From: a virus
Lineage: Duplodnaviria; Heunggongvirae; Uroviricota; Caudoviricetes
Length of the DNA: 9,852 bases
Direction: 5' to 3' (one strand)
Virus record (IMG/VR): IMGVR_UViG_2778261346_000016
Location: 1-9,852 of that record
Of the stretch, positions 7,281 to 9,852 are shown in pieces. The position numbers and the translations under genes were made by a program. The stretch's first letter is position 1. Every line of letters begins with the position of its first letter. The notes below the pieces were generated by a model that made no database searches, was not told where the DNA came from, and worked only from the letters and a program-made list of their open reading frames with translations.

Positions 7281-7451
7281 TCAGAATGGACACGGCCCAA
7301 GGAAATAACGCTGATTTAATACTTCAGTCTTTGCCGCATTTAAAAATACGCGAACACCTTCACGATCTCCCTTCTGGCGATACATTAACGCCTGCTGCGT
7401 GTACATGCGTCTCTGTAACTTGCTCTCCTTCACTGTGGTTGCAAGTGACAT
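7281..7451 (-). CDS. small ORF, 56 aa (sits where P22 has arf)
   Basis: Hand-translated: MSLATTVKESKLQRRMYTQQALMYRQKGDREGVRVFLNAAKTEVLNQRYFLGPCPF. ATG 7451..7449 with AAGGAG SD 7 nt upstream; stop is 10 nt before the erf start. Overlaps the alternative ORF 7360..7530 in another frame. Confidence 0.35.
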   Translation of the reverse strand: MSLATTVKESKLQRRMYTQQALMYRQKGDREGVRVFLNAAKTEVLNQRYFLGPCPF

Positions 7452-8277: not shown

Positions 8278-8505
8278 TCATAATTCACTCTTCAATACTT
8301 CCAACTTACTAATCGCCGATAGATATCCGCGCTGATAGGGAATCATCATTCCTTCGAGCTTGCCACTTCTTAACTCCTCCCTGAGCAATTGTATTGCTTG
8401 ATCAATAACCTCTGACTTAGCGTCCTTTATGGCTTGCTTGCGGGGCTTTGCTTTCTGCTTTGGCAGATTTCTCAAGCATGATGGAATGTATGTCTGATTC
8501 ACCAC
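8278..8505 (-). CDS. possible small protein, 75 aa, GTG-initiated (low confidence)
   Basis: ORF beginning at GTG 8505..8503 immediately after the N-like TAA. No ATG start or clear SD; it may be real (coupled to N) or spurious. Confidence 0.25.
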   Translation of the reverse strand: MVNQTYIPSCLRNLPKQKAKPRKQAIKDAKSEVIDQAIQLLREELRSGKLEGMMIPYQRGYLSAISKLEVLKSEL

Positions 8506-8778
8506 TTACCTCGCCGTCAGTTGTTTTGATTTCCGGTATCCTGCCGCGTAAATAGCTACGTTTGGCAGGCAAACACTTCCACTGCATTCATCTGCCTTCT
8601 TGCAGCGAAGGCTTCCGAGTGATGCTGCTTTGTCTGCTCTGACGCAACCAGAGAGCTTTCGCGCAATTTTTCGCGCCAGTCGCTGCTCTTGCATTGCCTG
8701 TTCACGTTGAGCCTGTCTGCGTGCTCTGCGGCGATTTCTGGCGTTATCGTCAGCCAGATATGTAATGACTACTGTCAT
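8506..8778 (-). CDS. N: N-like transcription antiterminator with N-terminal arginine-rich motif, 90 aa
   Basis: ATG 8778..8776 with GGAGGT SD 6 nt upstream. N-terminal NARNRRRARRQAQREQ resembles the lambda N arginine-rich motif (TRRRERRAEKQAQW, recalled). First gene downstream of the nutL-like site and operator/promoter region on the same strand. Confidence 0.55.
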   Translation of the reverse strand: MTVVITYLADDNARNRRRARRQAQREQAMQEQRLARKIARKLSGCVRADKAASLGSLRCKKADECSGSVCLPNVAIYAAGYRKSKQLTAR

Positions 8779-9223
8779 GTTGACCTCCGATGATTGACTT
8801 TGGTGATTGGATGGCCGGTGCTGAATTCCGGCTTACTGGTTAGAGCGCCCGCACTACCAGTGACGCTGTCTTGAGGCGCAGATTGGTTACTGCTTGCCAT
8901 GAGCGCTGTTTATACATTGGTCGAGCATCAGCCTGCTCATTCATCCAATCCCAAAGCCAACTACTCTTTGACTCACACTCTCGCAGTGAGCGCGCTCATG
9001 CCCTTGAGTCTCTGCCGCTTCATCGCCGCTGATAACCGGTGCGCGTCTGGCATTCGCGCTGCTTTACCGGAGCTACTTTTAATATATTGACCCTAACCCG
9101 ATGCTAAGCAGGCTCGCTCAATGGCGACTCAGGGCAGCATCATTACTGCTGCATTTCCTTTCGGCTGCGGTCTAACCGCGTTAGTGCACCATTACGGCAC
9201 CTCCTGTTTGGTTAAACTCAGTT

Positions 9224-9263
9224 CCCGCATTTCGGCGGGACAATCCCATCAATGTTAAAGAGC
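9224..9263 (-). promoter_or_regulatory. nutL-like site: boxA plus boxB hairpin
   Basis: Minus strand reads GCTCTTTAACA (reverse complement of 9253..9263), close to the recalled boxA consensus (rrn boxA TGCTCTTTAACAA; lambda CGCTCTTA). A 13-nt spacer is followed by hairpin CCCGC-CGAAAT-GCGGG (9239..9224). Confidence 0.45.
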
Positions 9264-9304
9264 CTGCCAATCTGTTCCGTTTGGCTTCCAGCGTCCTGCT
9301 GATG

Positions 9305-9400
9305 GCTAAAGAATACTGTAGGTATTTTATTGTGTAAATACCCAAGGTATTTATTTTTGATGAAATAATGATAAACAAATGAATACAAAGGATATTTATT
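9305..9400 (-). promoter_or_regulatory. oL/pL-like region: three 17-bp operator palindromes overlapping a leftward promoter
   Basis: Perfect 7-3-7 palindrome AAATACC-CAA-GGTATTT at 9336..9352; imperfect copies GAATACT-GTA-GGTATTT at 9311..9327 and GAATACA-AAG-GATATTT at 9381..9397. Minus-strand candidate -35 TTTACA (9338..9333), 17-nt spacer, -10 TATTCT (9315..9310), about 40 nt upstream of boxA. Confidence 0.45.
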
Positions 9401-9483
9401 TGTTTCGGTGTCTGCTTGTTCAGTGCTTTTTATGCGGGATATGTGAAGTGGATCCCGATAGCTATTGCTGCCGGGATTATGGG

Positions 9484-9852
9484 TTAGTCAGCGAAGGTTA
9501 AGACGAGAATTACCTTAATGATGTCTGCTACAACAGACACGGCCATAGATAAACCAAAGACGATCCAAGCCATAGAGATGTCTTCACTACCATCGTATAG
9601 GGTTCCGTAATCACTGGTGTAAGGCGTAAATGTCGCGCCTTGATACAATAGGTATAAGCTTGATCCATAGAGGATAAATGCAGATATCCCTTGTATTGCT
9701 ATGATCACTAGAATCATGAAACGAGCTGATCTATGCGCCCAAGCCTGGCTTATTTTTTCTGATAGAGATTTCGCAATAAAAGCATGCGCTAAGCCGTAAA
9801 TTGTTGAGATTGCCAACATCCCCAAAAAGCTTGCTATAGCGGTTCCAACCAT
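9484..9852 (-). CDS. hydrophobic membrane protein, possibly 5'-truncated by the window edge (occupies the lambda rexB-like position)
   Basis: ORF runs to the window end with no upstream stop visible, so the ATG at 9852 may be internal. Multiple long hydrophobic stretches. Sits on the far side of the operator region from the N-like gene. Confidence 0.45.
   Translation of the reverse strand: MVGTAIASFLGMLAISTIYGLAHAFIAKSLSEKISQAWAHRSARFMILVIIAIQGISAFILYGSSLYLLYQGATFTPYTSDYGTLYDGSEDISMAWIVFGLSMAVSVVADIIKVILVLTFAD

Follow-up and report, generated by a model that had tools for sequence, protein, structure and literature searches.

Probable left control region of a lambdoid prophage of the HK620 type and an RNA element inserted between its nutL site and N gene

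Genes and control elements of the window

The window, by which we mean the whole 9852-bp stretch of DNA that was analyzed, contains the genes and predicted control elements listed here in coordinate order.

6282-6665, SSB gene of the early-left operon
6665-7300, gene for an Erf-like annealing protein, also in the early-left operon
8506-8778, minus strand, N antiterminator gene (90 aa; Pfam N_peptide, E = 2.6e-15; arginine-rich motif NARNRRRARRQAQRE)
8972-9221, minus strand, insertion in the pL leader (250 bp, a clean indel relative to HK620 and IME10; RNA core at 8974-9204)
9181-9192, minus strand, mini-ORF AUG GUG CAC UAA at the 5' edge of the RNA (AGGAGG ribosome-binding site at 9205-9200, N7 spacing)
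9223-9240, minus strand, boxB hairpin of nutL (UCCCGC-CGAAAU-GCGGGA, 6-bp stem and 6-nt loop)
9253-9263, minus strand, boxA of nutL (GCUCUUUAACA)
9310-9338, minus strand, predicted pL core promoter (-35 TTTACA at 9338-9333, 17-nt spacer, -10 TATTCT at 9315-9310)
9311-9327, no strand assigned, OL1 (GAATACTGTAGGTATTT; 17 bp, 7-3-7, two mismatches to AAATACCNNNGGTATTT)
9336-9352, no strand assigned, OL2 (AAATACCCAAGGTATTT; perfect 7-3-7 palindrome)
9358-9374, no strand assigned, equivalent of the OL3 annotated in HK620 (TGATGAAATAATGATAA; not supported as an operator by its sequence)
9371-9401, tIMM hairpin of the HK620 annotation (contains the palindrome at 9381-9397)
9381-9397, no strand assigned, distal third operator-like palindrome (GAATACAAAGGATATTT; three mismatches to AAATACCNNNGGTATTT)
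9484-9852, minus strand, hkaS-like gene (122-aa hydrophobic protein; hkaS in the HK620 annotation; PHROG 6534, function unknown)

Otherwise the window has the make-up of a typical early-left operon, and a tRNA/tmRNA scan of the window returned no genes of either kind. The N protein is 95.6% identical to that of HK620, and in its C-terminal half it is similar to the N proteins of further lambdoid phages, with 59% to P22 gp24 as one example. The start codon of N is overlapped by the stop codon (ATGA) of a 41-aa ORF at 8775-8900 on the minus strand, which matched no Pfam family. This ORF belongs to a long-leader variant that is common to IME10, 611R6 and Gally and missing from HK620; as an upstream ORF, it may have its translation coupled to that of N. 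The hkaS-like gene fills a rexB-like slot between cI and OL, and the window ends at its start codon. A second ORF of the leader, 65 aa long with a TTG start (9181-9378, minus strand), is annotated as a CDS in HK630 (HK630_043, hypothetical protein). We do not accept it as a gene: an ORF that runs across the pL -10 element, the transcription start and nutL is almost certainly a false prediction.

When positions 8400-9852 were compared with phage genomes by megablast, the Stx2c-converting phage Stx2_5044 matched at 99.9% and HK620, HK630, HK140 and mEpX2 at ~98%. Between 9222 and 9401 the window aligns base for base with HK620, without a single difference. The record of that phage annotates, in order, N, nutL, pL, OL1, OL2, OL3, tIMM, hkaS, cI, OR3-1, pR, cro and nutR. 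Adding 6342 to a coordinate of the HK620 locus gives the coordinate in the window, which places the annotated nutL at 9223-9264, pL at 9303-9338, OL1 at 9311-9327 and OL2 at 9336-9352. The initial annotation of this stretch had read it as the pL operators followed by nutL, and the HK620 record has nutL, pL, OL1 and OL2 at these same positions. It had also proposed to compare the operator half-site with known lambdoid immunity groups; the alignment gives the HK620 type, with 100% identity over 9222-9401.

The immunity group of the prophage is thereby fixed as HK620-type, which is common to 16 phage records with CI proteins at least 99% identical. The pL/OL1/OL2/nutL region is already known, having been annotated in HK620 in 2001, and the value of our main finding is one of annotation only. 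The HK620 genome, including this region, was described by Clark et al. (2001, J Mol Biol 311:657, pmid 11518522), as cited in PMC2629481. The annotations of the HK620 record are themselves sequence-based, and in the searchable literature we found no experiments on HK620-type repressor binding or N/nut function.

Predicted operators, promoter and nut site, and the immunity boundary

We searched the whole window for the consensus AAATACCNNNGGTATTT with up to three mismatches and obtained three sites, namely OL1, OL2 and the palindrome at 9381-9397. The chance expectation for this pattern is 0.34 matches, and three matches were reached in 1 of 200 shuffles. The three sites span 87 bp and have one half-site (AAATACC) in common. 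All three of the 17-bp 7-3-7 palindromes that had been picked out from the letters are thus recovered, including the perfect one at 9336-9352. The sites were also scored with a weight matrix derived only from the OR1-3 operators of HK620 and Stx2_5044, all of which lie outside the window. Among the 9836 positions scored, OL2 ranks first, OL1 second and 9381-9397 third. Measured from centre to centre, OL1 and OL2 are 25 bp apart, and OL2 and the site at 9381-9397 are 45 bp apart.

A sigma-70-like promoter scan of 8400-9852 gave a single match, the minus-strand TTTACA-17-TATTCT, whose hexamers agree with the consensus at a modest 9 of 12 positions. It overlaps both OL1 and OL2, in keeping with the earlier suggestion that the palindromes overlie a plausible leftward promoter. 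The positions of the hexamers (9338-9333 and 9315-9310) mean that OL1 covers the -10 element (5 bp of the hexamer, together with most of the promoter spacer) and that OL2 touches the -35 element (3 bp of overlap). The predicted start is near 9303 on the minus strand, and the promoter reads away from the repressor gene. The register of -10 element and operator seen at pL is repeated at pR. On these features the cluster at 9311-9397 is supported as a predicted lambdoid CI-type OL/pL region.

The repressor had been expected just beyond the window, and this is where Stx2_5044 encodes it: a 238-aa protein with HTH_3 (8e-10) and Peptidase_S24 (5e-24) domains begins 19 bp past the window end. One detail of the earlier description is corrected by the gene map, in that the 122-aa gene at 9484-9852 separates the operators from the repressor gene. 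After CI, Stx2_5044 carries three OR sites with the same half-site, then cro and nutR; the OR1-3 sites of HK620 have this half-site as well. The OR sites lie between cI and cro with spacings of 24 and 25 bp, and the Cro protein matches the Pfam Cro family. Over the 7.4-kb locus of this phage the operator pattern has six matches, which are exactly the three OL-side and the three OR sites; six were reached in 0 of 200 shuffles.

The third palindrome fits the operator profile, as had been proposed, but it is not the OL3 of the GenBank record and it overlaps the annotated tIMM. When window positions 9358-9401 are set against positions 3016-3059 of the HK620 locus (L001), the record has OL3 at the nearer 9358-9374 and tIMM across 9381-9397. 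By the weight matrix the annotated OL3 scores -8 to -13 bits and ranks ~3100-3350 of 9836, which is background, whereas the distal site scores 12.4-13.1 bits. A similar arrangement is found in the Serratia phage OS31, in which three OL-side consensus matches occur at 2803, 2848 and 2873 (L131 coordinates). Their centre-to-centre spacing of 45 + 25 bp is the same as that of the sites starting at 9381, 9336 and 9311, and in OS31 a separate terminator follows cI. The hairpin that can form over 9381-9397 is AT-rich with an all-A/U core (-6.7 kcal/mol, z = -3.0), and a terminator scan did not call it. Because the annotated OL3 is at background, the OS31 spacing agrees, OS31 has a terminator of its own and the hairpin is weak, we favor 9381-9397 as the strongest candidate for the actual OL3, perhaps with a second role as a hairpin in the RNA.

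The alternative is that 9381-9397 is no operator at all and serves only as the stem of the tIMM terminator ending the cI-hkaS transcript, the real OL3 being at 9358-9374. Besides the layout of the HK620 record, this would accommodate the U-rich tail that follows the hairpin in the minus-strand RNA at tIMM, as well as the lambda-like spacing of ~22 bp that 9358-9374 keeps from OL2. The 45-bp spacing of the distal site is atypical for cooperative lambda-like binding, and this site coincides with the annotated terminator hairpin. We nevertheless consider the alternative unlikely, since it has to set a site at the matrix background above one that ranks third, and since OS31 keeps the distal site at the same 45-bp offset while a GC-rich terminator follows its cI separately. 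The tIMM hairpin has a core without G-C pairs and was missed by the terminator scan, and the roles of operator DNA and RNA hairpin are compatible rather than mutually exclusive. The evidence for a misplaced OL3 in the HK620 reference record, with 9381-9397 as the favored third operator, is a by-product of the analysis and is perhaps worth more than the main finding.

For nutL, the boxA sequence GCTCTTTAACA has an exact and single match at 9263-9253 on the minus strand. It starts ~40 nt downstream of the predicted pL start at ~9303, where the initial annotation had put it. On its own boxA is not statistically significant, because a match with up to one mismatch occurs in 37 of 200 shuffles. After a spacer of 12 nt comes the boxB hairpin, which has a folding energy of -10.5 kcal/mol (z = -3.2) that was equalled by 0 of 200 shuffles. 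This hairpin had been written as CCCGC-CGAAAT-GCGGG; it is indeed present, but its stem has 6 bp (UCCCGC/GCGGGA) and not 5. The GCUCUUUA core of boxA is the E. coli rrn BoxA, derivable from an Aquifex 12-mer and three differing positions (PMC3177189).

The 11-mer of the nutL boxA recurs in the nutR of HK620, HK630 and Stx2_5044. In these three phages nutR lies downstream of cro and has an identical boxA/boxB with a spacer that differs from that of nutL; its boxB has the same core on a longer stem of 8 bp. In another viral contig (L034) the boxB loop CGAAAU is kept with a compensating change in the stem. With a boxA, a boxB, an N gene downstream and a second copy as nutR, the segment 9223-9263 is supported as a probable nut site. 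In mEp213, two N genes are annotated (L005 1144-1416 and 2569-2901), and ahead of the HK620-type copy stand the structured RNA described below and a boxB that reads CCCTC in place of CCCGC. As this change disrupts the stem, it suggests that the second nut/N module is decaying.

The stretch of operators and nutL had been taken as a whole to define the immunity boundary, and this holds for the operators, which lie inside the immunity-specific DNA, but not for nutL, which lies outside and is shared with IME10. This phage is heteroimmune, with other operators and another repressor, and is identical to the window from ~9307 leftward. The identity starts just downstream of the pL -10 element (L222 900-1010 versus window ~9303-9308) and covers the early leader, boxA and boxB. 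The immunity-specific segment therefore has its left edge near 9307, at the predicted pL start, and nutL goes with N, as part of an N module shared by heteroimmune phages. The nutL-N unit is found traveling together in the heteroimmune HK620 and IME10 and in the window prophage.

That boxA and boxB are a non-functional relic, or that an rrn-like boxA acts with host factors alone so that read-through would not depend on N and boxB, is very improbable: boxA is insignificant by itself and of the full rrn type, and the pL leader of OS31 contains this boxA yet no obvious boxB, and no N is annotated there, but nutL is followed by an N gene that is intact and encodes an arginine-rich motif, boxB is exactly conserved between nutL and nutR though the spacer differs, contig L034 compensates its stem change, and the nutL-N unit moves between immunity types.

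RNA element in the pL leader

The 250-bp insertion lies directly 3' of the nutL boxB and carries a conserved structured RNA (nhmmer E = 1.9e-66). Sequences that are 69-90% identical to it occur in unannotated intergenic gaps in Hafnia, Klebsiella, Providencia, Edwardsiella and E. coli phages, and the copies are always oriented with the flanking genes or local transcription. A search with the block CTCAAGGGCAT..GCG....CACT found matches in at least 119 viral contigs and in 89 species genomes. Of the latter, 68 were confirmed by nhmmer, essentially all of them Enterobacterales, and the 21 unconfirmed matches fit the chance expectation. Among 5426 complete E. coli genomes, 118 carry the element, and none of the 118 has it annotated.

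When folded as a single sequence the insertion is indistinguishable from its shuffles (z = -0.47), so the support for a structure is comparative only. For the comparison we used a set of 48 sequences that are <90% identical to each other. A model of eight helices and 35 pairs is paired in 98.1% of cases, versus 85.3% in column shuffles and 30-38% when the partners are slid. Changes on both sides with pairing kept are seen at 23 of the 35 pairs (185 cells), a level reached in 0 of 500 shuffles. The G-U pairs fit the minus strand only, that is, the pL transcript.

In 83 of 95 copies the first helix is preceded on its 5' side, at a constant spacing, by a ribosome-binding site and an AUG. In most of them a stop follows after 0-2 further codons (53 three-codon, 9 two-codon and 13 start-stop forms). 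We also considered a helix that would enclose the ribosome-binding site and mini-ORF by pairing GUUUAACC with GGUUAGAC; some subfamilies have it, but it was rejected for the family, as over 139 copies it is no improvement on permuted partners (4.73 versus 4.62 +/- 0.06).

The nearest gene upstream of the element most often encodes a Q antiterminator (16 cases) or a CI-like repressor (12), or belongs to the lysis region. Its typical location is just past an antitermination checkpoint, which is either a nut site or the terminator following Q. The genes downstream are diverse, and the RNA is therefore not the dedicated leader of one gene.

The window, including the RNA core at 8974-9204 (E <=10), and 16 homologous loci were compared with Rfam 15, and no family reached the gathering threshold. 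The hits sau-41, SCARNA7, ST7-AS1 and skipping-rope were discarded as chance-level, all being far below threshold (skipping-rope, 15.5 bits versus 36.7). With nhmmer at E = 10 and the filters off, the inserted RNA had no similarity to the put RNAs of HK022 or to the OS31 leader. Literature searches by sequence strings and keywords found no paper on the inserted RNA. A self-splicing intron was not supported, as the unambiguous boundaries TGAGT...TGAGT are without group I/II end signatures and there was no Rfam intron match. A plus-strand 'terminator' at 9134-9152 was also set aside, since these positions form helix 2 of the RNA on the minus strand.

The element is well supported as a structured RNA, apparently an undescribed one, with a start-stop-like mini-ORF; it stands in the N leaders of numerous enterobacterial prophages, Shiga-toxin phages among them, and is perhaps worth more than the main finding. 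As to its role, we can only guess at a leader acting in cis, which would load a ribosome and shield the antiterminated transcripts of the phage, or, equally, at a processed phage RNA acting in trans. We put at about even the chances of the joint reading, in which the insertion would belong to an undescribed class of functional RNA, next to HK620-type operators arranged as 2 + 1 with the third site 45 bp out and the published OL3 mis-assigned.

Proposed mechanism and comparison with known systems

With its operators, promoter and nutL, its identity to HK620, an OR/nutR counterpart and cognate genes for CI, Cro and N, the region at 9223-9397 very probably serves as the left control region in a lambdoid prophage of the HK620 type, working in the way proposed here. 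Four parts of the proposal (repressor binding, cooperativity, the exact start and the dependence on N and Nus factors) are inferred by analogy with lambda.

In a lysogen, dimers of CI (HTH_3 + S24) would bind OL1 and OL2 (25 bp from centre to centre). As these operators cover the pL hexamers, bound CI would occlude the -10 and -35 elements and block leftward early transcription, and the weaker third site, 45 bp farther out, would probably act as OL3. Once CI is inactivated by cleavage, pL would fire near 9303, and the RNA would present boxA after ~40 nt and then boxB; boxA would recruit NusB/NusE, and the arginine-rich N-terminus of the N protein encoded at 8506-8778 would bind boxB. Together, N and the host Nus factors would render RNA polymerase resistant to terminators, and the modified polymerase would transcribe the early-left operon, including ssb and erf (6282-7300).

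HK620 (GenBank AF335538) has the gene order N - nutL - pL/OL - hkaS - cI and the hkaS gene as in the window. It is without the 250-bp insertion that in the window separates boxB from the rest of the N leader, and without the longer leader variant and its 41-aa upstream ORF.

Phage lambda resembles the window in having 17-bp, partly symmetric operators that overlap the -35 and -10 elements of the leftward promoter, and an early-transcribed boxA and boxB hairpin, in that order, ahead of N. Like phages of the window type, it has a mirror-image set of OR, pR and nutR across cI. Its rexB is a non-essential gene between cI and OL, the slot that is occupied here by hkaS. The lambda operator half-site differs from the AAATACC of the window, and the third lambda operator is ~23 bp away, versus 45 bp. 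The lambda boxA is CGCUCUUA, versus the full rrn-like GCUCUUUAACA of the window, and its boxB has a GAAAA/GAAGA pentaloop, versus a 6-nt loop (CGAAAU) on a G+C-rich stem.

In E. coli rrn operons the longer form of boxA is UGCUCUUUAACAA. At position 1 of this NusB/NusE site there is a U, whereas nutL has a G and nutR a C, and unlike the rrn boxA, the boxA of nutL precedes a phage-specific boxB.

The Serratia phage vB_SspS_OS31 (MT843276) has a CI that is 71% identical and the same half-site as the HK620-type phages. Its pL leader contains the same rrn-type boxA as the window (GCTCTTTAACAA; L131 3015-3058) and, after it, a ribosome-binding site with the mini-ORF ATGAAGCAGTAA. Unlike the window, OS31 has no member of the structured RNA family in this leader, no recognizable boxB and no annotated N, and its cI is followed by a canonical GC-rich terminator. 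The OS31 leader may be a different element that shares the mini-ORF theme with the RNA inserted in the window.
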